Virus record (IMG/VR): IMGVR_UViG_3300021387_000386
Strand: one strand, 5' to 3'
DNA from: a virus
DNA: 32,526 nucleotides
A model generated the notes under the pieces. The model was given only the letters and a program-made list of their open reading frames with translations, ran no database searches and had not been told where the DNA came from. Shown piece by piece: positions 1,704-32,526 of this stretch (position 1 is the first letter of the stretch; each line of letters starts with the position of its first letter). The position numbers and the translations under genes were made by a program.

Positions 1704-2822
1704 TTACCCCTCTATAAATAGTTTGTTGTATAATTTGTCAGTATTTTTAAGTAGTGTTTTACTGTCAAAATACTGCATAAACCCACGCCATGAGCTGTAA
1801 AACTCTGCAATCTGTTTTCGGTCAAGTTCGCCTTCATCAAGCTTCTTTCTGAACTTCTTTAATTTTCGCCGTTCACGTTTGACGCTTTCACGTCCGCCGG
1901 ATTTTATTATTTTCCCGGTCCTTCCGAACTTATAACGGCAATGCAGAAAATCAACGCCGTGTTTAATAGGCGTGATTCTTGTTTTCTTTGGATTCAGGCG
2001 GATTTTGTATTTTTCACAAAGCTTTGAAATTTCTTTTAAGGCGTTTTGCAGCTCTTCTTTTGAATTACACAAAATATAAGAATCGTCCATATAGCGCCCA
2101 TAAAAGCGCATTCTTAATTTTTCTTTTATGAAGTGGTCTATTTTATTAGGAAAGAAAACTGCTAAAATCTGCGAAACTTGACTTCCTAAGCCCAGCCCCA
2201 CTGGTCCGAACTCCTGAACGTAATATTTTGTCAGTGCTAAAAGCGTTTTATCTTTTATCTGTTCGGAAAGCATTTGAAATAGTGATTCGTGGTCGATGTT
2301 GTCGAAATATTTTGAAAAGTCGATTGTAAGAACATAACCAGAAGCGCCGTATTTTCTGTAATATTCTGCAAGATGGCGTTGAATGCGTTTGCGGGCAAAC
2401 TGTGTGCCCTTGCCCTGTAAACATGCGCCGTTATCGTAAATAAGCGGGCGTTTGAGAATTGGAACTAAACATTTGTCGCAAAGTGCTTTTTGCATTACTC
2501 GTTCGCAAATATGCGGTGATTTTATATGCCGTGTTTTTCCTCTTTCGTTTATATCAAAACAAACAAAACCGCGTGTTACGGCTATTTTATTTTCTACGCT
2601 GCGCACGGTGTCGAAAATGTTTTTCAGTAAATACATTTCGTAATATTGCACTGAATGTTTCCAGGCAACGCCCTTTCTGGCACTTCTGAAAGCTTCTAAA
2701 TATATGTCGGGATTTTTTAAGATGTCGTAATTATCAAAACAAGCGTTTGCAGCTTGCCTGCGCTGGTTGCGTTTTTCGGTTCGTCTCTGTCTTCTTGCGT
2801 CTTTTCGGTCTTGTGAAGTCAT
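1704..2822 (-). CDS. DGR reverse transcriptase
   Basis: 372 aa with RT motifs TIDFSKYFDNIDH (A), GLGLGSQVSQILAVFF (the [ILV]GxxxSQ signature of DGR RTs) and YGRYMDDSYIL (YxDD). It sits 3' of a TR that matches two VRs with adenine-only mismatches. Confidence 0.92.
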   Translation of the reverse strand: MTSQDRKDARRQRRTEKRNQRRQAANACFDNYDILKNPDIYLEAFRSARKGVAWKHSVQYYEMYLLKNIFDTVRSVENKIAVTRGFVCFDINERGKTRHIKSPHICERVMQKALCDKCLVPILKRPLIYDNGACLQGKGTQFARKRIQRHLAEYYRKYGASGYVLTIDFSKYFDNIDHESLFQMLSEQIKDKTLLALTKYYVQEFGPVGLGLGSQVSQILAVFFPNKIDHFIKEKLRMRFYGRYMDDSYILCNSKEELQNALKEISKLCEKYKIRLNPKKTRITPIKHGVDFLHCRYKFGRTGKIIKSGGRESVKRERRKLKKFRKKLDEGELDRKQIAEFYSSWRGFMQYFDSKTLLKNTDKLYNKLFIEG

Positions 2823-3064
2823 AATTTATAAATGGCCGCGTATAACGTTACAGTGTTTTTCTACACTATATGTCTGCCTTAGTCTACGTTACTTTGTGCC
2901 GGAAGTATGAAACATGCGATTACAGACGGCGCATGCCATGCAAGAAGCGTCCACTTCCTCACATCGCGGCCCGATTCGTGCTCCTGATTATTCAGGAAAC
3001 ACCGGATCACAAACCTCCTTTCCCTGGCTCGTCGTCCGGCATAATGTCAGACTGTTTGCCAGCT
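2823..3064 (-). other. Spacer between TR and RT; probably part of the TR-containing DGR RNA. 3007-3064 is still inside the Avd-like reading frame that runs through the TR
   Basis: About 240 nt between the TR end (3065) and the RT start (2822). No convincing independent coding ORF lies in the sense direction. In characterised DGRs this position is the spacer of the DGR RNA. No structure claimed. Confidence 0.4.
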
Positions 3065-3633
3065 AAATCGAAACGAACCCCGTTGTTGCCATTGGAAGCC
3101 GAATTGTAGTTGGCATTCCCGTTGTTGTTGCAGTTGCAGAAATTCGCAGATATAGGCTCGGCCCGTTGTAAACTTTTTAATATTTTTGCGTTGGATTTCT
3201 TCCAGCGTCTTAAAACCTTTATAAGATGGTCGATTTCGTCGGCATAGTGCAAAAGACAACGCAAAGTTTCCGGGAACACGTCGGCGCAATATTCAAGCTC
3301 ATTTTGCAGCGCTTCCGCGGTTCCTATTGCATAGTCCTGCAATAACCTTCTTTTATCAACTTCCAGCACACAAGCCGGATAAATCGAATTAGCGATTGAA
3401 ATATACTGCATAAGCTTTTGTAAAAGCCCCAGTATGTCTTTGCGGATAAAATCAACCATATAGGCGGGGTATTGTTCTTTCTGGTTTACAACTGTATTTT
3501 CTTCGGTTGTAAAAGTTTCATTTTTTGAATTGAACTTATTTAATAAATCACACGAAATTTCCCGCCGCAATTCACGTGCAATTTTATAAAAAAGAAGCGA
3601 ACTTTCGCTTCTCTGGTCGGCTCTAACGCTCAT
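3007..3633 (-). CDS. Putative Avd-like DGR accessory protein (ORF runs on through the TR)
   Basis: Sits between target gene and TR, the canonical avd position. ATG at 3633 has AGGAA 9 nt upstream; the track ORF starts at TTG 3684. The sequence looks helix-rich and basic (ADEIDHLIKVLRRWKKSNAKILKSLQR). The C-terminal ~50 aa are simply the in-frame translation of the TR. Confidence 0.5.
   Translation of the reverse strand: MSVRADQRSESSLLFYKIARELRREISCDLLNKFNSKNETFTTEENTVVNQKEQYPAYMVDFIRKDILGLLQKLMQYISIANSIYPACVLEVDKRRLLQDYAIGTAEALQNELEYCADVFPETLRCLLHYADEIDHLIKVLRRWKKSNAKILKSLQRAEPISANFCNCNNNGNANYNSASNGNNGVRFDLAGKQSDIMPDDEPGKGGL
3065..3150 (-). repeat. DGR template repeat (TR)
   Basis: 86-nt block homologous to 3737-3822 and 23601-23686. 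The sense strand reads SANFCNCNNNGNANYNSASNGNNGVRFD. It has 24 adenines, 22 of them in 11 AAY (Asn) codons. Every mismatch to either VR is at one of these adenines. Confidence 0.93.
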
Positions 3634-3694
3634 TTTTTGAATTCCTATTTTTGATTTTATTTTGTTTTGTTTCCTAGTCTTCAATCTTCACAAG

Positions 3695-3711
3695 GCACCC
3701 GCAAGGGGTGC
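3695..3711 (-). promoter_or_regulatory. GC-rich hairpin 3' of VR1 (candidate DGR target-recognition element)
   Basis: GCACCC-gcaag-GGGTGC, a 6-bp stem with a 5-nt loop, 25 nt beyond the VR1 end. An outer inverted repeat cctagtct (3673-3680) / agactagg (3729-3736) brackets it. Confidence 0.55.
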
Positions 3712-3726
3712 GCAGATGTTCAGATT

Positions 3727-4587
3727 TCAGACTAGGAAAGCGAAACGAACCCCGCGGTCGCCATTGGAAGCCGAAGCGTAGCTGGCACTCCCGCCGCTGC
3801 GGCAGTCGCAGAAATTCGCAGAATCGCCCGTATATGGTGACGCTTCCCACCACCACCAGCGCGAACCGTTCCAGTTTGCAATTCGCTTTTGCGGAAATTC
3901 AGAGAACAAAGGCCACTGAACAGAAGTGCCGGTTGAATAACCTTTGTTGTTACTCCATGCCTGATGGCCGAAAACTTCAATTTCTGTCGGAAGAAAAACT
4001 GTTTCGGCAAGCCACACCCAGTCGGTCTTGTTATCAAGTAAGCGGTGAACGGTTTTTGGCGTAATTCCGATAGCGTTAACAAGCCCTGTTTTTACCTGGT
4101 TGTTTAAGTAAGCGCAAAGCTCGCTTGCAGCATATCCGCCGGCGTTTGTATTGGTGCTGTTCATTGCTTTTTGAAAAACGCAGTTTTTCGAGATCATCAA
4201 AATATGATGTGAAGAAACCGGCGTGTCACCGACATTCAAGTAAGTGTCAAAGCCTGCAATCTCAAAGCGTAAACGCTGGTTACTGTTGGAAATTGCGCTT
4301 CCGTCAATTGTCATTGATGATACGTCGATATAGTCGCCAAGTCGCAAGCCGTTGAAATTGCCTGCGTCTGCACGTGTGCGAAGTGCTGCAAAAGCGGCGG
4401 CGGCGTTTGCAACTCCTAAAACTGTAACAAGATTGCGCCCTACATCCGGGCGGTTTGGCGAAAGATAGCCTTCCAGCCCTTCTGGTGATGTCTTGTACTG
4501 GTCGGCAATAAGAATAGAATCATCCTTTTGCGGCGTTCTTGCCGTTAAGGTAGACACCGGAACAATTCCGGTTATGTCATTACTCAT
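3727..4587 (-). CDS. DGR target protein 1 (variable C-terminal ligand-binding domain; probable receptor-binding or tail accessory protein)
   Basis: The C-terminal 30 aa are VR1, preceded by the RWWWWEASP motif shared with the second target. Start chosen at ATG 4587 (AGGAG 10 nt upstream, preceded by the conserved late motif) rather than the SD-less ATG 4638. Located just after the tail-tip genes. Confidence 0.85.
   Translation of the reverse strand: MSNDITGIVPVSTLTARTPQKDDSILIADQYKTSPEGLEGYLSPNRPDVGRNLVTVLGVANAAAAFAALRTRADAGNFNGLRLGDYIDVSSMTIDGSAISNSNQRLRFEIAGFDTYLNVGDTPVSSHHILMISKNCVFQKAMNSTNTNAGGYAASELCAYLNNQVKTGLVNAIGITPKTVHRLLDNKTDWVWLAETVFLPTEIEVFGHQAWSNNKGYSTGTSVQWPLFSEFPQKRIANWNGSRWWWWEASPYTGDSANFCDCRSGGSASYASASNGDRGVRFAFLV
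3737..3822 (-). repeat. DGR variable repeat VR1
   Basis: 86-nt alignment to the TR with 14 mismatches, all at TR positions that are T on the + strand (A in sense). It encodes the C-terminus SANFCDCRSGGSASYASASNGDRGVRFAFLV of the target protein. Confidence 0.93.
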
Positions 4588-4601
4588 AGGTTTTGTGCTC
4601 C

Positions 4602-4626
4602 TATAAGTAATAGTCAGTTTTGTTTT
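4602..4626 (-). promoter_or_regulatory. Conserved late-gene upstream motif, copy A
   Basis: Sense strand AAAACAAAACTGACTATTACTTATAGGAG, directly before the SD and ATG of target gene 1. Near-identical copies lie at 17461, 19164 and 23512. Confidence 0.6.
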
Positions 4627-4651
4627 AGAATTTTGCATTTTTTTGAAAATA

Positions 4652-4666: not shown

Positions 4667-5278
4667 ATGATTTACGCTTTACTTGCAATTATTTGTTTTA
4701 TTATCGTTGGTATCATCAATAGAAAAATTAAGAAGGCGAAAAAAGAAGAAGAAGGGGTTTCCGCCGACTTAGACGAAATTCTTATTTTTGATACCGAAAC
4801 AACCGGCATATTTCCAGATTCAGAAGAAATACTTGAACTTGCAGCAATCAACGGTCTAGGCGAAGTTTTGTTTCACGAACGCTTCAAGCCTGAAAAGAAA
4901 AAGTCATGGCCGAAAGCGCAAGCAATCCACGGAATCAAGCCCGCCGATGTTAAAGACTGTAAGCCGATAAGTGACTATTTACCACAACTTCAAGAAATAT
5001 TCAGCAAGCCGAAAATTATATGCGGTTATAACGTCAGCTTTGATTTAAAGTTTATTCATGCCGCCGGAATAAAAACAAACGCACCCGGCATTATTGATGT
5101 TATGAAACGCTTTGCGGATAGTCGCGGAATCTATGACGAAAAGCACGGTCATAACAAGTGGTTCAAACTTGAAGAAGCTGCAAAATATTACAACTACCAG
5201 TTTGAACCACACGGCGCACTTGAAGACTGCAAAGCGACTTTGTTTGTATTAAAGAAGCTGCAAGGCATTGAAGATTAA
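4667..5278 (+). CDS. Membrane-anchored DEDDh 3'-5' exonuclease (DnaQ/epsilon-like)
   Basis: Exo motifs ILIFDTETTG (ExoI), GYNVSFDLKF (ExoII) and HGALEDCKA (ExoIII, H-x4-D). The N-terminus IYALLAIICFIIVGII followed by NRKIKKAKKEEE looks like a signal-anchor. The track ORF starts at TTG 4643; ATG 4667 is preferred. Confidence 0.8.
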   Translation: MIYALLAIICFIIVGIINRKIKKAKKEEEGVSADLDEILIFDTETTGIFPDSEEILELAAINGLGEVLFHERFKPEKKKSWPKAQAIHGIKPADVKDCKPISDYLPQLQEIFSKPKIICGYNVSFDLKFIHAAGIKTNAPGIIDVMKRFADSRGIYDEKHGHNKWFKLEEAAKYYNYQFEPHGALEDCKATLFVLKKLQGIED

Positions 5279-8200
5279 ACATACAAATATGCATTTGAAA
5301 AATTTCCCCCTGTCACGCTGAGTATTTCTGTTGCTATTCCACCACTAGAATTCTTTGTTTGCATTTGTAGTTTAACATCTCCGTTTGAATATACCCCTAG
5401 CGCATTTGGCATTTTAGCTGCTGAAAACCAGTCTCTATGGCCACAACCTCTAAACAAAACATAGTTTATATCACCATTTGCCTTCCAGAAAACTTCCACA
5501 CTATTTGCGATAAATGTATATGTTATCAAAGGCGCAGAATTGCCATCTACAATGGTTACGTATCCACTAGCAAGATATAGATTTTGTAATCCTTCACGTT
5601 TGGTAAATTGTGCGAAATGAGCTAGAATCCTTTCTACAAACGATGTTATACTTCCTCCGCCGATAAAAGTTGCAAGCCGTGCACCTGTCCGAATGGTAAC
5701 ATCCTTTAACACAATGTTTTTATATTCTCCGCCCTGTGCGTGAACGTTGTTAAAATTAGAATTTCCGTCATAATCAACGGCCCAGCCAGAAGTCCCGTCT
5801 TGATCTATGGCGTGTGTATTTTCGTTATAATGACCATTCCATCCTGCCGATTTAAACAAGCCGCCTTGTTGCATTGTTATGTTTTGTGTAAACAGCTTAT
5901 TGATAAACGCAACCTTTGTCGCAAGTTCTTCACAAAATACAGTTACAGCGGAAAGCTTACGCATTGTCTGTTCAAGCTTTGAATTGTTGGAAACAATTTC
6001 ATCATCAAGAACCGACATAACGTTATTAAAACTGTCGCTTATTTCGCCGTCGTTGATTGATTCGGCCCACTGATAACCGTTCCAGCTGTAAACACGGCCT
6101 TTTAAGAAAGTGTAAGTAACACCGCCATAAGTCACGCTTGTTGTAGGTCCGCCCCATGTGAAATAGTCGCCTTTGTAGCGTGTACCGCCTGCGCTTAAAT
6201 AGTCGTTTATCTCTGTTAAAAGCCCCTTGTTTGTTCCGGCCCTTACTGTTGAGAAGTTGAAGTAAACTGTAAAATCTTTGTTTTCGCCTGCGTAGTTTAA
6301 GTAACCTATAGGCTTGTTTGAATAACCGATAGCATAATTATTAAAACCGATTGCGGTTCCTGTTGTGGCACGGTAGCGGATAACTACCGGGATGTTTCCG
6401 CCTTCGTCGATTTTTACACCTTTGAGCGATTCAAAATAGATTGTTTTTCCTTTGATTGTGGCGGCAATCTGTGAACCGTCGTTTCCGATTGAAACAATTG
6501 TAAATGGAAGTTCTTCTTCTCCATAAGTCAGATGGATTGTTGCAGCGACTTTTTCGCCCCATGCCTTGCCGGTGTTATCACAAGTAAAACAGAAGCTTTC
6601 AACGTCAAAGCGTACATTGTAAACGGAATCGCCTTTTTCACCCTGCGGGCCTTGTGGTCCGGTTGCGCCTGTGTCTCCCTTGTCGCCTTTTTCGCCTTGC
6701 TCTCCCTGTTCGCCCTGTGGTCCTTGTGGCCCCGGAATGCGTACTTCATCGGCAATATCTGCCATTTTCTGCATTATTGCTTCTGGAATAACCGCGCCGT
6801 CTTCTTTTGGTGTTGTAAGGTTTGTTTGATATTCCGGGATGTCTCCGAACTGAAAGATTGCTGAATTATAATCTTTAAGAAGTAATTCCCAGCCGTCGGA
6901 ATTCTGCTTTCGGTTATAAATCATCATTTCGTTTGTAACGCGGCTAAACTCTCCGCTTTCGTTGAGATAACCGAAAGAATAAATATTTCCATATTCCGGT
7001 ATTACATTTATTGCAAGCGGAATAGAAAGTTTGACATTTCGTGTTATGCGCTTTGTAGGGTCTGCCGGTTCTACTTCTATGTATAAATGTTCTTTTGCTG
7101 TGTCTGTCTGTGCCTGAACAATCATGCCATAGCGGGCGTTTGTGTCGGTAAAGTCGCACAAGTCAGAAGTGACAATCTGCTTTAAAAAACCGTTTTCGAC
7201 TGTTATGCTGTGAATAATTCCGTTTGAAAGTCCGATTTTAAGCTGCTTCATTTGAAGCATGATTTTTGAATAAAGCGGGTAATAGTCGCCGTCGCGTCCT
7301 ACCTGAACGGTAATTTCACGCGGTTGCAGCTGTTGTTTTGCAAGAATTCTGTGTGTGTATTTGTAGGCGTGTTCAAAGGTTGTTATATACTTTGGCGCAT
7401 TTTCAACAATAATTTTGTGCTCACCATAAACTGCGCTTGAATCAACCTTGCCGTTTACTGTCTGGTAGAAAGTATCAACGGCCCAGCTTTCACGGTTTGT
7501 GAAAGTTGTTTTTACGGCATACGGCTTGCGTTCAAAAGTTTTTGTAACTGTTACAGATTTAATACACTGCTCATTCAAAAGCGCAACCGGCGTGCTTTGT
7601 GCCTTTTCTATTGAAAAAGTCCATTTGCCCGTTGCGTCGTCTCTGTACATGGTTGTATTGCATTCAGAAAGAATGCTGTTGAGAATGTCTGCTTTCTTTG
7701 AATCGTCTGTTAAAATGCCGTCACAATAAAAGCCGTTCTGTTCACAATAGGTATATACCGCGCCCAGCGCTTCAAGGTCTATTTCATCATCATTATATCT
7801 TGAATGCGGATGTACATCCGTCGTCATTACTTCAAGAACCCATGAAGCGGGGTTTCTTGTCGGGTATCTGTTAACAGTCCATGCGTCATTGTTCCAGATT
7901 CTAGCTTTTCCGTAAGCGTTAATATTTATCTGGTCCAGATTGTCTTTTGTTGATTCGTTGGAAATAATACGCAAGGCAAGGCGTGTTGTTCTTCCTCTCC
8001 ACGGTTGCTCAAGCGGGGCACATGTAACAATGTTGTTATCGGTAGACTTTGCCGCGTCGTACTGCCAGCAATTGAGATAACATAAATAGCAAGTTTCCTG
8101 CGAATTGCTTTCTTCAAGTGCGGTAATACGTGTCAATCTGATCTGAATATCTTTGCCGACACACTGCGCAGCTGTGAGGGTAACAGTTTTACTAAAACGA

Positions 8201-9177
8201 ACCTGTTTGCGTGAGTTTATGTCACCTGTAACAATGTTTCCGGCGTCGTTCCATGTGCTGCCGTCGTTACTCCATTCGACTTTTACAGAAACGTTTTTGC
8301 TTTTCCATCCGTCGTCGTATCGGCGCAAGCCGTTAAACAAAATGCACACATCAAACTTATAAGTATTTGTAGCGGCCTGTTTTACAACGGCGTTGTTATA
8401 GTCCAGCTCGTCAGAAAAACTTGTGCAAGAAACTTTTTCATTTAAGCCGGCAATTACAACTTCGTTTTCATACTTTACATCAAGTTTATCTGCCGGATCA
8501 TAAAACGGGCAATCATTTTCAAAATAATAAGGGTTTTCGCCGGAATCTTCCAGATAAGAAAACTCTTCAACCTGCCCCGGAATTTCGATTGTTCTATTCG
8601 GTTTTTTAATAACCTTTGTACCTATGGAAACATCCTGAATAAGTGCGTTATTAAATCCGGCAACAAGAAGAACATTCCAGAATTGATTTGCGCCGTTTTC
8701 TCCTGAAATTGTGTAATAACCCGCAACAAGTTTATAAGGCACGTCGTAAACACTTCCCATGATATACGGGATGTTGTAACCGAGTGCGCTTCTGTTGTTT
8801 GCGCCTTTAAGAAACGGAAGCTGTGTTATACGCTCTGCAAGGGCTTTCGCCTGCTTCTGGGCCTTTTCCATTTCCTCTTGTGCTTTCTGCTGTTCAACTG
8901 CGGAATATACAGCGGCACCAACTGCAACGGCAGCGCATACAAGGGAAATAACAGCCATAACAACTGCACCCGTTGCGCCTGGTATTACACGGATAAATAC
9001 AATGTCGTTATCTTTCAGAATGTAATCGGGTGCGATCTGTTCGCCTGCATTAAGAATAATACACTGTTCAAGGTCTAATTCCGGGTAAAGTTCGTGCGCA
9101 AGCTCGTTTACACTGGCATTGCCTTTGATGGTTCTATATTCTTCTGAAAGTCCTTTGTATATGTTTAATGTTCCCAT
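5275..9177 (-). CDS. Tail tip / host-specificity protein (lambda gpI-like N-terminus fused to a gpJ-like body, collagen-like tract, C-terminal fibre domain)
   Basis: 1300 aa directly after the K-like gene. The N-terminus has a small domain plus a hydrophobic helix ([25 protein letters not shown]). A J-like segment follows ([31 protein letters not shown]). It is the largest ORF in the tail module. Confidence 0.75.
6625..6732 (-). repeat. Collagen-like Gly-X-Y tract (12 triplets) inside the tail fibre gene
   Basis: [36 protein letters not shown] read from the minus strand. Confidence 0.85.
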
Positions 9178-9560
9178 TGGATAACCTCGTAAACATTCGC
9201 AAGTTTTAAGTAAGTTCTACTTGAAGCAAAAGAAGAAATTCTAACGCCCTGATTTTCGGTTGCATGAATGAAAGTGTTTTTATCAAGTGCAACTGCAACG
9301 TGTAGCCGCTTATCCTGCAAGCCGTAAAATTCAAGAATTACGCCTTCGCTGATTTCGTCCAGCCGTAATTTTTTTACGTTAAGTGTCGGGGCGGTTTTTT
9401 CAACCTTTGCACGGTCGAACTTTTCTAAAGCTACGTCTTTAAGAGTTTTTCCCAGTCGCTTTTCTACTTCAATTGCAAGGCCGTAACAGTCCAGCCCGGT
9501 TTTTATGTCGCGCCCGAACTCTACGAACGGCACGCCGATTAAATCCGCAACATCAATCAT
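9165..9560 (-). CDS. Tail tip assembly protein, NlpC/P60 (C40) fold, lambda gpK-like
   Basis: 131 aa with GLDCYGL (catalytic Cys context) and LHVAVAL..FIHAT (His). It sits between the L-like and J-like genes. Confidence 0.7.
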   Translation of the reverse strand: MIDVADLIGVPFVEFGRDIKTGLDCYGLAIEVEKRLGKTLKDVALEKFDRAKVEKTAPTLNVKKLRLDEISEGVILEFYGLQDKRLHVAVALDKNTFIHATENQGVRISSFASSRTYLKLANVYEVIQWEH

Positions 9561-10015
9561 GTGTTCCCCTTGTTCGTTTCCGCGTCGAACTTATAAGGCG
9601 GAAAAGTCATTTCTAAGCGGTCGTCGGTTCCTAATTCAAAGTTTAATTCCATATTCTCTGAATAAGAAACGGTTCCGTAAAAATGAATATACTGTTTAAG
9701 GCGCTGAACCTCGCCACCTTCTGCAATAAGGCCCACAACGTCAAGGCGGTAATTGTCGTCTGCATTTTCTACAAACTCAATCAGGCCGTTATCTGCTCCG
9801 CTTATGCGAAGGTTTGCACCTTTGCCGTTTGAATCCGGCGGCGCATATTCAAAGCTTGCGTGATGATAAATATTGCCTTCAAACTCTATGCTTTCGGTGT
9901 TGTTTACAAAGTAGAGTGTTGAACATCCAGGGCAAGAAAACTTTAAAAGAAAGGGCAGTGCATAAGCTCCGCCGTTGAAGTATCTGTTAAAAATCTGATA
10001 TTCGTTTAACTGCAT
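9557..10015 (-). CDS. Minor tail protein, lambda gpL-position (DUF1833-like)
   Basis: 152 aa, in M-L-K-J synteny, translationally coupled to its neighbours through 1- and 4-nt overlaps. Confidence 0.55.
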   Translation of the reverse strand: MQLNEYQIFNRYFNGGAYALPFLLKFSCPGCSTLYFVNNTESIEFEGNIYHHASFEYAPPDSNGKGANLRISGADNGLIEFVENADDNYRLDVVGLIAEGGEVQRLKQYIHFYGTVSYSENMELNFELGTDDRLEMTFPPYKFDAETNKGNT

Positions 10016-10368
10016 TAGTAAACCTCTTCAATTTCCAAGCTTAAAACCCTGTTTTTCTGTCCTTCGCTTTCATCCGGGATTGTCTTAAAACGAAAGTATT
10101 CTGTTGAAGTTGGTGTTCGTTTAAGTGCAGCACAATGAAAGTTTCCGGCACATCCGCCCAGCGTGTCAGTGAACCAGTTCCAAAAAGCGGTGCGCTCTGT
10201 GTTTGTTACTCCTAAACTGCATTTGAAGTCAAAAACAAAGCGGGTGTTTTTCAGGATGGAAACTTTACGCCCGCTGGCGTATTCTGTTGTTGTTGTGTTT
10301 TCTTCCGGCTTTGCGGTGCCTTTGAAAAACTTTGTGTTTACTGTGTATGGCCATTCAACGTATGTCAT
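10015..10368 (-). CDS. Minor tail protein, lambda gpM-position
   Basis: 117 aa immediately after the tape measure gene. The call is by synteny. Confidence 0.5.
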   Translation of the reverse strand: MTYVEWPYTVNTKFFKGTAKPEENTTTTEYASGRKVSILKNTRFVFDFKCSLGVTNTERTAFWNWFTDTLGGCAGNFHCAALKRTPTSTEYFRFKTIPDESEGQKNRVLSLEIEEVY

Positions 10369-12905
10369 AAGTACCGCGCCCCCTTCATGCTTGCGTTTGC
10401 AGATTGCAAAGCGTTGTTATATCCGCCCGACTGCATTGTAGAATTAACAATTTTATCGACTGTAATTTTAATCTGTCGGTCTTGCTGCATTGCCGAAACC
10501 TGCACGGCGTCGCCTGCGTTGTTTTCGATGTTTACCGGCATATTTACTACAACGCCTTTTCCGCCTTCGCCGTTTGCAAGGTCCAAAAATGCCCGCTGTT
10601 CTGCCGGATTCAGGATTGCTTCGCCGGCGTTTCCATTAAACGCGATTTTGTCGCCATGGTAAGAATTGCCGGTCAAAAATCCACCTGTACTAAAAGAAGG
10701 TGCCCGCGGTTTTGCGCCTGCAATGGCTATGAGCTGTGCAGCACCCAAAAGCCCCGCAGTTGTGGCATTGATTACGTTTACCGGTGGTGTACCAAAAGCA
10801 AGGGCATTAACAACGGCCTGCGCTGCCTGTGCGGTAGCCATTGCAAGATTCATGCTCCATTCTGCCATTTTAATTTTGTATTCCTTCTGGGCGGCTTCCT
10901 TGTCAAGCTGGTCTTTTTTCTCTAAGTATTCATCATAAGTGATAATGTCATTATCTAACTGCATTTCAAGGGCTTTTGCGTCTTTGTCGTACTGTCTGTT
11001 TGCTTCGCTCAATGCAGTTTGTGAAATTTGGCTTATAGAATTAGTCAAACTCTGCATGCTGTCGGTGATTTGAGACATAACAGAATTTACATTGTCAATT
11101 GTTCGTCCGTGGCCCTCTGCGGCTTTTTCTTCTGCTTCCTGAACCTGTGGAAGAAGTTCTTTAAGCTCTTTTAATTTTTCGATGTAGTCCGCATAAGCTG
11201 CGCTTTCGTGGTCCAGCGCTTCGGCTTCTACTTCCAGCGCGTCGATTGTCTGCTGGATTGTGTCGGAAAGCTTCACTTCCTGCGGGCCGTTTATAAGCTC
11301 GTTTGCGCTTTCTTTGAGTTTAAGAACTTTGTCGTTCATTGCGTCAAGCTGGTCTTTAATTGCTTTTACCTGTCTTTCTTCTTCCTTTTCGGCTTCAAGG
11401 CGTGCTTTTTCTGCTTCTTCCATAGTAGCAAGATCAGTACTCATTCTCTTTATTTCTGCCCGGATTTTTACGGCGGCGGCGCTTGTTGTGTCTCCGCCAT
11501 CCTTGATAAACTTAACGTATGCTTCAAGCTTTGTGTTAAGCATTTTGCGCAGCTCGTCTTCCTGGGTGATCTGCTCTCCTGCCTGCTTACGAATTGCAAG
11601 TTCTTTTTCCTGGGCGGTCACTGATTCGTTGTATTTGTCTAAAAGTTCGCTTTGAATGGCGGCTTCTTCGGCTTCGCGTTTTTCAAGCTCCATTCTTACA
11701 GCGTATTGCAGTTTATAATCTGCCTTTTCAAGCGTTGCAGCACTTCGCAAGGTTTCCAGACGTTCACGCAACTGCTTTGTTGTCATTGTTGCGGCTTCCT
11801 GTGCCGCTTTTGCGTCTGCCTGTTCGTTTTCAGCTTTCTTTTGTCGCCAGCTCTGTTCTTCTTTCAGAATGTTTAAAAGCTCTGTTTCTTCTGCCTTGCG
11901 CTTTTTGAGATTAGAAAGATAGTTGATAGCGTTTCCAAGTGCTTCGTTATTCTGTGCGCCGGCAACGTCTTCAAGGTATAACCGGCGGTTTCCGTCTTTG
12001 TCGACGTCTTTTGCTTCTGCAAGCGTATTTTTTACAAACTCTTTGTTAGAACGATAACCGCCACCGATAACCCATGTTTGAGAAGCTTTTTCAAGCGCCT
12101 TGTTTACGTTTTCCGCGAACTCCTGCGCCTTCTTTGTCTGTCTAAGCCAGAAGTTGTTCCAAGAATCATAAGCGGGTTTTGTAACCTTTCCCCAGCTTTC
12201 GGCAAGGTCACCTTGTGCCATTTCAAGTTGTTTTGCGCTGCCTGTTGCTTTTGTGGCTTCTTCTGAAATTCCTTTGTACTGTTCGGCCAGAATCTTTACA
12301 GCTTCGCCGTTTTGAAGCTGTTCTTTTGTCAGGTTCTTTGTTTCAGCTGATAAAGTCGAAAGTTTTCCCGCTTCGCCTGTATAAGACTTGTTAAGCATAT
12401 CAATAACGCTTTGCAAGCTTTTGCCACTTCCTGCGGCAACGTCAATTGAAGCGCTCATAATATCCATTACTTGCGCTTCTGTTCTTCCAGAAGCTACAAG
12501 TTCGGTCATCATCGGAATAAGTTCTTCATCGCCATAATCTGAAATAGACTGCAATTGCCCCGCAAATTCTTCAAGGCGTTTAACGCCTGTACCGTCCATG
12601 TATGGATTGTTCTTTGCTGCCTGTGCAAGTTTTGTTTCTGCCTTTAACTGAACGTTGAAAGCTTCGGCAGTGTCTTTAATTGCCTGCAATTCCTGTTTAA
12701 GAAGTTTTACTTCGGCAGCAATAACGGCACCAAGTCCGGCACCTTTAATTGTGCTTGTTGTGCGTTTCCATGAATTACCAAGCTTTGAAATAGAATCGTT
12801 TTTTGCTTCTTTTCCTAATTTATTAAAACTTGCGGTCAGTTTGTCAATTTTGGTTTGCGCTTCTTTAGAATCTACGCCGATTTTTGTATTTACTTGCTTA
12901 GCCAT
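10365..12905 (-). CDS. Tail tape measure protein
   Basis: 846 aa, long, alanine/glutamate-rich and coiled-coil. A hydrophobic Gly/Ala-rich segment lies near the C-terminus (ALAFGTPPVNVINATTAGLLGAAQLIAIAGA). Positioned between the chaperone and tail-tip genes. Confidence 0.88.
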   Translation of the reverse strand: MAKQVNTKIGVDSKEAQTKIDKLTASFNKLGKEAKNDSISKLGNSWKRTTSTIKGAGLGAVIAAEVKLLKQELQAIKDTAEAFNVQLKAETKLAQAAKNNPYMDGTGVKRLEEFAGQLQSISDYGDEELIPMMTELVASGRTEAQVMDIMSASIDVAAGSGKSLQSVIDMLNKSYTGEAGKLSTLSAETKNLTKEQLQNGEAVKILAEQYKGISEEATKATGSAKQLEMAQGDLAESWGKVTKPAYDSWNNFWLRQTKKAQEFAENVNKALEKASQTWVIGGGYRSNKEFVKNTLAEAKDVDKDGNRRLYLEDVAGAQNNEALGNAINYLSNLKKRKAEETELLNILKEEQSWRQKKAENEQADAKAAQEAATMTTKQLRERLETLRSAATLEKADYKLQYAVRMELEKREAEEAAIQSELLDKYNESVTAQEKELAIRKQAGEQITQEDELRKMLNTKLEAYVKFIKDGGDTTSAAAVKIRAEIKRMSTDLATMEEAEKARLEAEKEEERQVKAIKDQLDAMNDKVLKLKESANELINGPQEVKLSDTIQQTIDALEVEAEALDHESAAYADYIEKLKELKELLPQVQEAEEKAAEGHGRTIDNVNSVMSQITDSMQSLTNSISQISQTALSEANRQYDKDAKALEMQLDNDIITYDEYLEKKDQLDKEAAQKEYKIKMAEWSMNLAMATAQAAQAVVNALAFGTPPVNVINATTAGLLGAAQLIAIAGAKPRAPSFSTGGFLTGNSYHGDKIAFNGNAGEAILNPAEQRAFLDLANGEGGKGVVVNMPVNIENNAGDAVQVSAMQQDRQIKITVDKIVNSTMQSGGYNNALQSANASMKGARYL

Positions 12906-17460: not shown

Positions 17461-17485
17461 CATAAGTAATAGTCATTTTTGTTTT
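17461..17485 (-). promoter_or_regulatory. Conserved late-gene upstream motif, copy B
   Basis: Sense AAAACAAAAATGACTATTACTTATGAGGG, then 9 nt, then the ATG of the protease. The TGA inside the motif is the stop codon of ORF 17473..17901. Confidence 0.6.
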
Positions 17486-19163: not shown

Positions 19164-19188
19164 TATAAGTAATAGTCATTTTTGTTTT
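19164..19188 (-). promoter_or_regulatory. Conserved late-gene upstream motif, copy C
   Basis: Sense AAAACAAAAATGACTATTACTTATAGGAG, then 11 nt, then the ATG of the portal. It overlaps the TerL stop codon. Confidence 0.6.
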
Positions 19189-21862: not shown

Positions 21863-22209
21863 TTGTTTGCCTTTTTATTCTTAGGAATTACAACTGGAAC
21901 AATAAGCCCGGCGATAATAACAACAAGGCCGAAAACGGCAGTAATAATTGTCTTTACTGTATCTTCTGCCACACCTGCAAAGCCCAGCACAAAAGCACCA
22001 AGCCCAACCAGGATAATAGAAAGCCATACAACCCATGTCTTAACAGCTGGATCGCGCTTTTCATACATGCCGGCAACTGCAAGGCCCGCACCAAACATGG
22101 TGATTGCATAACCTAAAACGTCAGCAAGCGGGAACTTTGCAAAGTTTGAAATGATTACACCGGCAATCAATACGATTAAGCCGATAATTAAAAGAACGCG
22201 TTTTTTCAT
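21859..22209 (-). CDS. Integral membrane protein (about 4 TM helices)
   Basis: ATG 22209 forms an ATGA overlap with the o-spanin stop. MKKRVLLIIGLIVLIAGVII... has four hydrophobic segments. It ends the lysis cassette. Confidence 0.6.
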   Translation of the reverse strand: MKKRVLLIIGLIVLIAGVIISNFAKFPLADVLGYAITMFGAGLAVAGMYEKRDPAVKTWVVWLSIILVGLGAFVLGFAGVAEDTVKTIITAVFGLVVIIAGLIVPVVIPKNKKANN

Positions 22210-22469
22210 TCTTCTTCTACTCCTTGTACGTCTACTGCGTACCGAACAATCTTTTTCCAATACCACAAAGGCATTGAAACTTTATCTGTGTTCACGTCAT
22301 ACGTGACAATCAGATTTCCTTCTGTGTCGTAAGGCTCCGGGAATTGCGGGGCTTCACTTTTTATTTTTGAGCTTTGACAAGACGTTAATTGTAGCGTCAA
22401 AATCAGCGCTGCTATTGCCAGTTTCAAAGCTTTCTTTTGCTTCGTTGTTGATTTTGTGCTGATGTTCAT
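22206..22469 (-). CDS. Outer-membrane lipoprotein, o-spanin candidate (Rz1-like)
   Basis: 87 aa with a signal peptide and lipobox (LILTLQLTS|C). The 5' 116 nt overlap the i-spanin candidate in another frame. The mature N-terminus is Pro-rich (APQFPEP). Confidence 0.6.
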   Translation of the reverse strand: MNISTKSTTKQKKALKLAIAALILTLQLTSCQSSKIKSEAPQFPEPYDTEGNLIVTYDVNTDKVSMPLWYWKKIVRYAVDVQGVEEE

Positions 22470-22611
22470 TCTGTTTTAATTCCTCTTCTTTTTTCTGGCT
22501 TTCTTTTTTCAGGCGTTTATTATCTGCGACAAGCCAGCAAGAACCGATTGCAAGAAGCGTAATAATTACGCAAAAAAGAATTGCAATAACTATTCCGAAA
22601 ATCTTAATCAT
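22354..22611 (-). CDS. i-spanin candidate (Rz-like): N-terminal TM plus charged coiled coil
   Basis: ATG 22611. MIKIFGIVIAILFCVIITLLAIGSCWLV is followed by KRLKKESQKKEEELKQNEHQ. It overlaps the lipoprotein ORF, which is the classic overlapped spanin architecture. Confidence 0.6.
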   Translation of the reverse strand: MIKIFGIVIAILFCVIITLLAIGSCWLVADNKRLKKESQKKEEELKQNEHQHKINNEAKESFETGNSSADFDATINVLSKLKNKK

Positions 22612-22843
22612 TGGCGGGCTTCCTGAACTTATCAAGCGCAATGTTTACGTCAATTGTGGTAAACAGCGCAACGAAAGTGCCGGAAACTGTGCAAAGCTCC
22701 GATATTTCGCAGTTAGGAAAAACGCCGGTCCATTTAAGAACGGCACCAACTAAAAGAATTCCGCCCGCTACAATTTTTGCAAGCAAGGAAACTTTTTTTG
22801 CTTTAAGTCCTTTTTCTTCTGTTTTTTCTGATTTTTCATCCAT
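22604..22843 (-). CDS. Holin-like protein (two TM helices)
   Basis: 79 aa with TM1 VSLLAKIVAGGILLVGAVL and TM2 LCTVSGTFVALFTTIDVNIAL, and charged termini. Adjacent to the endolysin candidate. Confidence 0.55.
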   Translation of the reverse strand: MDEKSEKTEEKGLKAKKVSLLAKIVAGGILLVGAVLKWTGVFPNCEISELCTVSGTFVALFTTIDVNIALDKFRKPAND

Positions 22844-23511: not shown

Positions 23512-23531
23512 TATAAGTAATAGTCACTTTT
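23512..23531 (-). promoter_or_regulatory. Conserved late-gene upstream motif, copy D
   Basis: Sense AAAAGTGACTATTACTTATAGAGAGG, then 7 nt, then the ATG of 23262..23498. Confidence 0.55.
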
Positions 23532-23558
23532 AGAAAGGCGAAACAATTTTTCTGTAAA

Positions 23559-23579
23559 CTGCCGGCACAAGGCCGACAG
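23559..23579 (-). promoter_or_regulatory. Hairpin 3' of VR2 (candidate DGR target-recognition element)
   Basis: CTGCCGGC-acaag-GCCGACAG, 7 bp plus one C.A mismatch with a 5-nt loop, 21 nt beyond the VR2 end. The loop RCAAG and the spacing parallel the VR1 hairpin. Confidence 0.5.
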
Positions 23580-23581
23580 AT

Positions 23582-24211
23582 TTACAGATACTGGATCAGG
23601 AAAGCGAAACGAACCCCGTAGAAGCCAATGGAAGCCGAATTGTAGTTGGCATGCCCGGCGTCGCTGCAGTTGCAGAAATACGCAGATTCAAACTTAGTCG
23701 GTGTTGAAAGCCACCACCAGCGCGAATAATCTTCGTCTTTATCAAAAGCGATTCTGTGATTGCCTTTTTTGAAGTATTTCAATTGCTCGTCTGCACATTC
23801 TGCAAAATCTTCAAATTCAGAAACCCCGAAAACCTCACCAACAGAAAGAAGACGAACTTCTTTTACAGCTGGTGTTTCAAACGGCGTTTCCATTTCCTTA
23901 AAAATGCCGGCAAGAACTTCTTTAACTTCATTACTCAAATACTGTGCAAGCTCTGTTTTTGCGTATTCTTTGCAATTGTTTGTATCTACTGGGCCGTCGA
24001 AAATAACCCGATCCATAACAAACAGCATTTCTTTTTCTGTCTTCTGAATCAGTGTTGCGCTTTCCTTGTGGCACTCAACCGGCGGATATAAACCTTCTTT
24101 TCCCGGTAAGCAAAAAGAAAGCCTGATTTTGTCACCGACATTAAGTTTAAAGCCGTTTTCTCTCAATTTCTGGAAGTCCTTTTTTGTTGAATAAGTTGTT
24201 TTGATTTTCAT
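23582..24211 (-). CDS. DGR target protein 2 (remote target, variable C-terminus)
   Basis: 209 aa. The C-terminus RWWWLSTPTKFESAYFCNCSDAGHANYNSASIGFYGVRFAFLIQYL parallels target 1. No signal peptide or TM segment seen. ATGA overlap with the upstream DUF4406-like gene. Confidence 0.85.
   Translation of the reverse strand: MKIKTTYSTKKDFQKLRENGFKLNVGDKIRLSFCLPGKEGLYPPVECHKESATLIQKTEKEMLFVMDRVIFDGPVDTNNCKEYAKTELAQYLSNEVKEVLAGIFKEMETPFETPAVKEVRLLSVGEVFGVSEFEDFAECADEQLKYFKKGNHRIAFDKDEDYSRWWWLSTPTKFESAYFCNCSDAGHANYNSASIGFYGVRFAFLIQYL
23601..23686 (-). repeat. DGR variable repeat VR2 (remote)
   Basis: 86-nt alignment to the TR with 11 mismatches, all at TR sense-strand adenines. Encodes SAYFCNCSDAGHANYNSASIGFYGVRFAF. 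Confidence 0.92.
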
Positions 24212-24495
24212 TGTTCTACCTCTCTAAATATTTTTATTTCTAATTGTTGCGCTATGTAATATTCAAGCCGCGCCCCTTTGGATTCTTCCCAGTCTTTCAA
24301 AAGAAAAATTGCGTCACACTCCATAAGCCCCGCAATATCTTTTCTCATGTACCAGGTCCACGACTTGCCCGTGTCTTCCTGTTCAGCTGGATTGAAAACT
24401 TCAAAGCCTGCCGATTCAAGAATATTTTGTGCGGTCTTAAACTTCTGTTTATAGTCCGCGTCGCCTGTAATTTTCCCGCTGATGTACACTTTCAT
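24208..24495 (-). CDS. DUF4406-like protein (nucleoside 2-deoxyribosyltransferase-like fold)
   Basis: 95 aa. MKVYISGKITGDADY...FNPA...CDAIFLLKDWEESKGARLEYYIA matches the DUF4406 pattern recalled from memory. Confidence 0.6.
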   Translation of the reverse strand: MKVYISGKITGDADYKQKFKTAQNILESAGFEVFNPAEQEDTGKSWTWYMRKDIAGLMECDAIFLLKDWEESKGARLEYYIAQQLEIKIFREVEQ

Positions 24496-32398: not shown

Positions 32399-32425
32399 TT
32401 TATAACAAGTTGATTACATTGTCAA
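32399..32425 (-). promoter_or_regulatory. Sigma70-type promoter facing the early operon
   Basis: The minus strand reads TTGACA (32425-32420), a 15-nt spacer, then TATAAA (32404-32399) preceded by TGt (extended -10). It lies in the switch region between the divergent transposase gene and the early genes. Confidence 0.5.
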
Positions 32426-32526
32426 GAACTTTTTAAAAAGTAAAGAAAAATAATTTGTCTGCCGATAGTTATTGCGGTATGAATGAAGCAATGAGACAGA
32501 AGAAAGCTTTATATATTCCTCAATTC
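32420..32526. repeat. Terminal direct repeat, right copy (identical to 1..107)
   Basis: Manual alignment of both window ends shows 107/107 identity. This implies a unit genome of 32,419 bp. Confidence 0.9.

Follow-up and report, generated by a model that had tools for sequence, protein, structure and literature searches.

The viral DNA stretch IMGVR_UViG_3300021387_000386 (32,526 nt, hereafter the window, meaning the whole stretch) carries a single diversity-generating retroelement (DGR) in which one template repeat (TR) is matched by two variable repeats (VRs): VR1, next to the cassette, and VR2, at the 3' end of a distant gene for a DUF6273 protein, called here target 2. VR2 is very probably a working second target of this prophage's only DGR. 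An earlier note on this DNA had proposed that one TR feeds two VRs, one of them remote, and base counting bears this out: round the circle the TR and VR2 are 20,536 and 11,883 nt apart, where about 20.5 and 11.8 kb had been given. The two-target architecture as such is already known, and the window is a further, well-supported example of it. The features that carry the argument are the following.

3065-3151, minus strand: TR, the A-rich reference copy, 87 nt with 25 A, encoding ...SANFCNCNNNGNANYNSASNGNNGVRFD and ending in GATTT
23601-23687, minus strand: VR2, the remote variable repeat; 11 of 11 mismatches to the TR at TR adenines
23594-23617, minus strand: VR-type 3' end, resembling an initiation of mutagenic homing element, GGGGTTCGTTTCGCTTTCCTGATC; the TR has ...GATTTAGCTGG there
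23551-23588, minus strand: inverted repeat 3' of VR2, able to form a hairpin or cruciform (DNA fold -14 kcal/mol, z -6.2)
23582-24211, minus strand: target 2 gene, encoding a 209-residue stand-alone DUF6273 protein (Pfam DUF6273, E 2e-9; PHROG 21980, E 1.4e-11)

A repeat search of the window returned one three-copy family (3065-3151, 3737-3823 and 23601-23687, all on the minus strand). Of the 87 positions, 11 differ between VR2 and the TR, and every one of these differences falls on one of the 25 TR adenines, for which the hypergeometric probability is 1.6e-7. The adenine-restricted alignment and the eight asparagine substitutions listed in the earlier note were both recovered, the one base by base, the other codon by codon: ten of the changes lie in AAY codons and convert Asn to Y, S, D, A, H, I, F and Y. 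The eleventh (position 3068, GATTT to GCTTT) is common to VR1 and marks the 3' boundary between TR and VR types. Homology between TR and VR2 ends abruptly on both sides. Within the window VR1 and VR2 have none of the 11 variable residues in common, in agreement with the proposal that their patterns differ and that each has diversified independently.

The 3' flank of VR2 is of the VR type. Both VRs end in GCTTTCCT and the TR in GATTTAGC, that is, GCTTTCC in VR1 and VR2 against GATTTAG in the TR. The hairpin begins 13 nt past the VR2 core and spans the stop codon; its inner stem is CTGTCGGC-cttgt-GCCGGCAG (23559-23579), and none of 200 shuffled sequences folded as well. It is kept in two relatives (L004 and L005) with altered stem bases, and among lineages the stems vary while position and loop size are kept. 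The hairpin was not called an intrinsic terminator, as no T-run follows it, and scans for promoters and terminators around target 2 gave fewer sites than in shuffled sequence. TR homology, a VR-type 3' end and a hairpin are all present at VR2 and speak for a live target rather than a relic.

Variation of VR2 among relatives

Five IMG/VR sister contigs encode homologues 67-88% identical to the target 2 protein, and the differences in the gene concentrate in the VR. The RT loci of these contigs were fetched and each sister VR2 was compared with the TR of its own contig. In 3300021400_000895 and 3300031993_000631, whose TRs read TGAC..ATAGC where that of the window reads TTCC..ATGGC, the VR2 mismatches lie at own-TR adenines in 19 of 19 and 16 of 16 cases; VR2 of 3300032038_000406 has three non-A mismatches to its own TR. 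In four of the five complete genomes both VRs carry the non-adenine variants peculiar to the TR of that genome. To judge from these sequences, VR1 and VR2 evolve in concert, driven by the TR.

The same conclusion about where VR2 varies comes from 111 homologous proteins, in which entropy exceeds 2.9 bits solely at 11 Asn-templated codons and pairwise identity is 12.6% at these codons as against 90.2% elsewhere. The 111 proteins have 111 distinct VR signatures, a count that is inflated by the use of 90%-cluster representatives, which leaves the position of the variation unaffected. The earlier note had reasoned that invariance of VR2 across relatives would mark a dead target. The opposite was found: every relative has a hypervariable VR2, with the variation confined to TR-adenine positions. 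VR2 is a target that is active or was so until very recently.

Two rearranged loci deserve mention in their own right. The TR of IMGVR_UViG_3300031853_000387 (L007 3672-3758) carries seven A-to-N changes relative to the TR of other contigs (L002 6525-6611), five of them identical to the VR2 of the same contig; these changes could stem from VR2-to-TR gene conversion, from homing of mutagenised cDNA into the TR or from an assembly chimera. In IMGVR_UViG_3300038345_000063 (L012 ~3969-4001), about 1.4 kb is deleted between the VR1 hairpin and approximately residue 181 of the reverse transcriptase (RT), so that the Avd-position open reading frame (ORF), the TR and the N-terminus of the RT are missing; both target genes stay. 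The two VRs of this contig bear different TR variants, which suggests recombination between lineages.

The cassette, target 2 and their relatives

The remaining parts of the cassette are listed below.

1704-2822, minus strand: DGR RT, 372 residues (Pfam RVT_1, E 3.8e-23; PHROG 1423 'Reverse transcriptase', E 1.3e-85)
3007-3684, minus strand: Avd-position ORF between target 1 and the RT, from the ORF list and its translation, so named by position only
3695-3711, minus strand: GC-rich hairpin 3' of VR1, GCACCC-cttgc-GGGTGC, within a longer inverted repeat
3737-3823, minus strand: VR1, the repeat in the target next to the cassette; its 15 mismatches to the TR are all at TR adenines
3727-4638, minus strand: target 1 gene, a 303-residue ORF (Pfam DUF6273 at residues 146-303, E 1.5e-9)

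The TR lies upstream of the RT gene at a distance of 243 nt. The RT translation contains LGSQVSQ, which fits the [LIV]GxxxSQ signature of DGR RTs. The TR is in frame within the 3' end of the 3007-3684 ORF, the C-terminus of which resembles the unmutated VR peptide (…ISANFCNCNNNGNANYNSASNGNNGVRFD…); from position and size alone, the product of this ORF is a putative Avd. DNA folding found no hairpin 3' of the TR (z -0.48), and that 3' of VR1 folds at -17.4 kcal/mol (z -7.0), a value that none of 200 shuffles equalled. Target 1 directly follows the gene at 5275-9177, whose 1300-residue product matches tail-fibre PHROGs. Its true start is probably the ATG at 4587, giving 286 residues instead of 303, because a Shine-Dalgarno (SD) sequence and a conserved 14-mer precede this second ATG; the longest ORF starts at 4638. 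A Pfam scan found no immunoglobulin (Ig) or Fn3 domain in target 1 or target 2.

In phage BPP-1 the cis requirements of a target are TR homology, a VR-specific 3' element and a hairpin (Guo 2011, PMC3240598). By analogy, the RT and the product of the Avd-position ORF would copy the TR RNA (3065-3151) into cDNA, with misincorporation opposite adenines during synthesis, and the cDNA would replace DNA with TR homology on its 5' side, GCTTTCC as its VR-type 3' end and a GC-rich hairpin downstream. All three features occur together at two sites, which would serve as acceptors, VR1 by the cassette and VR2 11.9 kb away on the same strand, and each would be rewritten independently. The BPP-1 system (Mtd/Avd/TR/Brt) is like that of the window in its adenine-specific TR-to-VR transfer, its C-terminal VR, the difference between VR and TR 3' elements and the GC-rich hairpin after the VR, which is needed for homing in BPP-1. 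It differs in that its single target adjoins the cassette and is the trimeric protein of the tail-fibre tip, which has N-terminal domains; in that its hairpin has a loop of 4 nt (GRNA), against 5 nt in the window (CTTGT and CTTGC); and in that no Avd is recognisable in the window. Target 2 is not Mtd-like, having no N-terminal attachment or trimerisation domains and a gene outside the tail module.

VR2 forms the C-terminus of the 209-residue ORF, at the C-terminal end of its DUF6273 domain. The domain match scores 38 bits against a cut-off of 23.5 and places residues 116-207 on profile positions 82-171. BLASTP aligns targets 1 and 2 over 165 residues (30% identity, E 2e-17) and both match DUF6273; target 2 is therefore a paralogue of the whole C-terminal domain of target 1, which contradicts the earlier statement that the two share only an RWWW...GVRFAFL scaffold. 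An exhaustive search of 1.8 billion representative proteins returned 174 relatives of target 2. Since many of these have 170-260 residues, and distant homologues align from about residue 17 to residue 206, the 209 residues are essentially one domain. The N-terminus is charged and hydropathy reaches a maximum of 0.86 (Kyte-Doolittle, 19-residue windows), a simple test that supports the reported lack of a signal peptide or transmembrane (TM) segment.

Two further rows describe the surroundings of the target 2 gene.

24208-24495, minus strand: DUF4406 / nucleoside 2-deoxyribosyltransferase-like gene (Pfam DUF4406, E 7.8e-28)
4603-4616, 17462-17475, 19165-19178 and 23513-23526, minus strand: copies of the 14-mer TGACTATTACTTAT

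The TGA of the DUF4406 gene overlaps the ATG of target 2 (ATGA junction) and, because of this overlap, the two genes are likely co-transcribed and translationally coupled. Upstream of DUF4406 lie genes for a DnaC/IstB-like ATPase, a DUF6291 protein, RecT, PcfJ and SSB. Downstream of target 2 come an 83-nt spacer, a 78-residue TM/coiled-coil protein and a 139-residue protein without a family match, followed by small membrane proteins, an overlapping i-/o-spanin-like pair and then HNH, TerS, TerL and portal. The gene order is lambda-like and target 2 closes the replication/early block. From its TM, lipobox and spanin-like overlap features the block downstream is plausibly a lysis cassette, and profile hidden Markov models (HMMs) gave no support for a lysis function of the 78- and 139-residue proteins, even at E<=1. 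The earlier placement of the gene between a DUF4406-like gene and a lysis cassette thus stands on its DUF4406 side, the lysis label being without HMM support; that the gene lies outside the tail module is right, the tail fibre being 14 kb away.

The 14-mer occurs in four exact copies, against 0.13 expected, and is conserved in all close relatives. The copies stand directly 5' of the SD/ATG of target 1, the prohead protease, the portal and the 78-residue membrane protein. No copy precedes target 2, the one at 23513-23526 preceding the gene after it; with this copy begins a virion/lysis gene set under different control, and it is not part of the DGR. The 14-mer may act as a promoter of late genes, as a site of processing or in the control of translation.

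More distant small DUF6273 genes were gathered by family profile. Their variability is confined to the same kind of codons, and neither an RT nor a TR was found within 10 kb at any of 48 loci; since none lay within that range, a scan with a degenerate pattern, derived from one of these lineages, was used for TRs farther off. In a lineage marked by PolA and VapE (~30% protein identity), six IMG/VR contigs have a TR, a VR1 704-718 nt from it and a remote VR2, at about 13-14 kb in the two contigs whose coordinates were worked out. Acutalibacter phage Fontainebleau (ON453893.1), a cultured, inducible prophage of the OMM12 mouse gut consortium, has its TR at 35105-35192 and a VR2 about 25 kb away in the CDS 9330-9899, with 15 of 15 mismatches at TR adenines and further DGR features at 33554-34489 and 35351-36376. 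Its GenBank record names only a 'reverse transcriptase' and hypothetical proteins, the DGR and its targets being unannotated, and the paper that named the phage does not mention the DGR or its two targets.

Fontainebleau and the PolA/VapE lineage agree with the window in layout: some 0.7 kb separate VR1 from the TR, the RT comes next, and VR2 is remote, within the replication module. Their small target is a stand-alone DUF6273 protein of 185-192 residues, 28-30% identical to that of the window. Their 3' ends read GCTTTCCTGATC in the VRs and GATTTCAC in the TR, which repeats the contrast between GCTTTCC (VR) and GATTTC (TR), and a hairpin follows each VR examined, including VR2 in the PolA/VapE-lineage loci inspected or folded. 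They differ from the window in that the replication module is PolA/VapE rather than DnaC-like/RecT, the lysis genes lie at the far end of the genome, TR and VR2 are 13-25 kb apart and the host of the cultured member belongs to the Firmicutes. Marker genes were surveyed around 27 non-redundant loci. DNA polymerase A and the VapE primase/helicase flank the small target in 16 of them, and in four more it has an integrase-proximal early position; seven matched no marker, and none of the 27 had a tested structural marker (TerL, portal, capsid, tape measure) within 2.9 kb.

A further group of prophages from NCBI/ENA assemblies (L052-L054, ~10001-10555) has stand-alone DUF6273 genes of 182-184 residues in an integrase-proximal early region beside N6-methyltransferase, DUF6353 and DUF5906 genes. 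Their VR-like stretch varies between copies that are otherwise about 90% identical, and no TR was found within 10 kb, the range to which the search was limited.

Remote second targets have been described before, so that the novelty implied by the earlier note was overstated (PMC5758913, bioRxiv 10.1101/2024.10.15.618418, PMC11792537). Wu 2018 (PMC5758913) counted non-adjacent targets in 45 of 372 DGRs, with many prophages in which one target adjoins the element and another does not; phage DGRs with two DUF6273 targets were reported by Baykov 2023, and the survey of Roux 2021 was by design blind to remote targets. In FP_Toutatis the second DUF6273 target is 17,480 nt from the TR (bioRxiv 10.1101/2024.10.15.618418). 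Like the window, this phage has a single TR for two VRs, each of which lies in a DUF6273 protein, and its gp24 (YP_009797461.1) resembles target 2 in being small (215 residues), far from the TR and encoded in the early region, where it stands ahead of the replication initiator and the antiterminator Q. Unlike the window, FP_Toutatis is a myovirus of a Gram-positive host; the VR of gp24 is internal, with about 40 C-terminal residues after it; and target 1 of this phage, encoded downstream of the RT, has Ig domains and is Hoc-like or a 'tentaclin'. A tblastn search with the target 2 protein of the window did not detect gp24.

A single DGR with two DUF6273 targets of unequal size is also found in the Faecalibacterium prophages Lelie and CP11, where they are termed 'large and small' (PMC11792537), and in nd4 and nd12 as tgt1/tgt2 (PMC10743442); the authors of both studies call the role of the pair unclear. 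Unlike the window, nd4 and nd12 have both targets inside the cassette, one being a tentaclin with an N-terminal VR and Ig domains. By the definition of Baykov 2023 target 2 is not tentaclin-like, its VR being C-terminal and an Ig-like domain absent. The Treponema denticola DGR shares with the window a single TR and dispersed VRs (TvpA and up to seven non-adjacent targets), as well as the probable host genus, but is a chromosomal element, while both targets of the window travel with the phage and target 2 lacks an export signal. The targets of the T. denticola DGR are lipoproteins or surface proteins.

The small target is thus syntenic in early/replication modules of at least three DGR-confirmed lineages, namely the siphovirus-like prophage, probably of Treponema, the PolA/VapE Fontainebleau-like phages and the Toutatis myoviruses; a fourth, the N6-methyltransferase/DUF5906 prophages, has the same placement and a variable VR-like stretch, with no TR found. 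I did not find this consistent placement across unrelated phage backbones stated in the papers cited above.

Alternative explanations and the role of target 2

Two readings would deny VR2 its present function. In the one, VR2 is a decayed or orphan target that holds old A-to-N differences, which would agree with the smaller number of changes in VR2 than in VR1 of the window (11 versus 15), with the non-A mismatches of 3300032038_000406 and with the unlike TR variants in the VRs of 3300038345_000063, whose TR is deleted. However, the VR-type 3' end and the hairpin are intact, VR2 follows its own TR's non-A variants in four of five complete genomes, and the 111 homologues all differ in the VR while the rest of the protein is about 90% identical; drift is unable to restrict change to 11 codons. 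Decay is accordingly very improbable and was rejected on the intact cis elements, the tracking of the TR and the codon-restricted variation. In the other reading, an ordinary paralogue would hold a TR-like pseudo-copy whose adenine bias is a coincidence or an artefact of assembly. Targets 1 and 2 are indeed true paralogues, metagenome assemblers can make chimeras between repeats, and one sister contig's TR carries VR2-like bases. Yet DNA identity is 87% in the 87-nt block and drops to background at once outside it, in genes whose proteins are 30% identical; all mismatches are at A (P ~1.6e-7); and the pattern recurs in contigs independent of one another, in the genome of a cultured phage and in RefSeq FP_Toutatis. 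Chance or paralogy is effectively refuted, and I give it hardly any credence.

With VR2 taken as a working target, the question becomes what the protein does. Target 2 would be a free soluble variable binder made with the replication genes and not built into the tail. By my estimate, the chance that it acts within the infected or lysogenic cell, or is released as a soluble factor, falls a little short of even; that target 2 still docks onto the virion is a less probable though real prospect, and something else accounts for the remainder. The early/replication-module placement leans to a non-structural role, because no structural marker is near, because the PolA/VapE synteny and the Toutatis placement agree with it and because no 14-mer precedes target 2. 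More specifically, I tentatively propose that target 2 is an early-expressed cytoplasmic or released hypervariable binder, a phage DGR 'intrabody', with ligands that could be host factors, host defence proteins or competing phages. Intracellular DGR targets of the C-type lectin kind have bacterial precedents (PMC10907252, PMC7517822); none is known from phages. It is possible, if rather doubtful, that target 2 is instead a small accessory receptor-binding or adhesion module docking on tail, baseplate or capsid, which would give a phage with two independently variable binding surfaces. All functionally characterised phage DGR targets are virion receptor-binding proteins (BPP-1 Mtd), target 2 is paralogous to a protein encoded directly after the tail-fibre gene, the authors of the Toutatis and nd4/nd12 studies judge small DUF6273 targets likely receptor-binding proteins, and in lysogens DGR variation of a virion protein is linked to the packaged genome. 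On the other hand, target 2 has no anchoring domain beyond DUF6273, where target 1 has about 140 extra N-terminal residues; in every lineage examined the gene is in replication/early modules and never beside structural genes; and target 2 lacks the 14-mer found before target 1, portal and protease.

Several results weigh against a working VR2 in a non-structural binder, in part or as a whole. The activity of VR2 is read from variation between genomes, not from heterogeneity within a sample, and the count of unique signatures is inflated as said above. Neither Pfam nor PHROG profiles matched the 3007-3684 ORF even at E<=1, nor did BLASTP show any similarity to the Avd annotated in FP_Toutatis, which is likewise without a Pfam match. 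Gene position is no proof of timing or location, and the Toutatis preprint judges the homologous small targets probable receptor-binding proteins (bioRxiv 10.1101/2024.10.15.618418). A C-type lectin fold was not confirmed by structure prediction: the AlphaFold2 model of the 209-residue protein, from a 128-sequence alignment, had a pLDDT (per-residue confidence) of 59, below 50 at residues 131-199; that of the homologue P0350 reached 74, with the VR region still poor. Foldseek searches of the PDB with both models gave nothing significant, the top match of the P0350 model being the non-significant T. ramosa IgA peptidase 9qa6 (E 1.4), whose N-terminal domain is annotated DUF6273; in BFVD only other DUF6273 proteins were matched, and weakly (best E 1.1e-3), and a PDB profile search found nothing. 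A hint of a shared ligand was sought in the likeness of VR1 and VR2 within genomes and none was seen, 0.8 of 11 residues being shared within genomes versus 1.5 between them (six genomes, low power), a result that argues neither way.

Phage DGRs are understood almost wholly through the switching of tail-fibre tropism. To this the window adds a well-supported example of a small DUF6273 target, in a phage whose host is probably diderm (Treponema), and the small target emerges as an old syntenic resident of replication/early modules across very different phages. If target 2 is non-structural, targeted hypermutation by phages reaches beyond receptor binding. The same architecture exists in Fontainebleau, which is cultured and inducible, so that the choice between a structural and an intracellular role is directly testable.

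The prophage and its probable host

The window holds a phage genome of 32,419 bp, circular or circularly permuted, in terminally redundant form; the repeat search showed positions 1-107 to be identical to 32420-32526. A megablast search of the target 2 region against GenBank phages gave no match. The phage is temperate, the element being a prophage flanked by host genes on a 129.9-kb contig. A 423-residue protein encoded at 36-1307 on the plus strand matches transposase PHROGs (E 1.4e-30); its gene adjoins the RT, on the strand opposite to nearly all other genes, and may provide the integration or transposition function of the prophage.

The host genus is probably Treponema, the host label Treponema sp. 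being found in two independent metagenome-assembled genome records. On the minus strand, the ORFs 22206-22469 and 22354-22641 overlap in different frames; one encodes an N-terminal TM helix and a coiled coil, the other a lipobox (LTSC). This i-/o-spanin-like pair points to a diderm host, in agreement with the Treponema labels.

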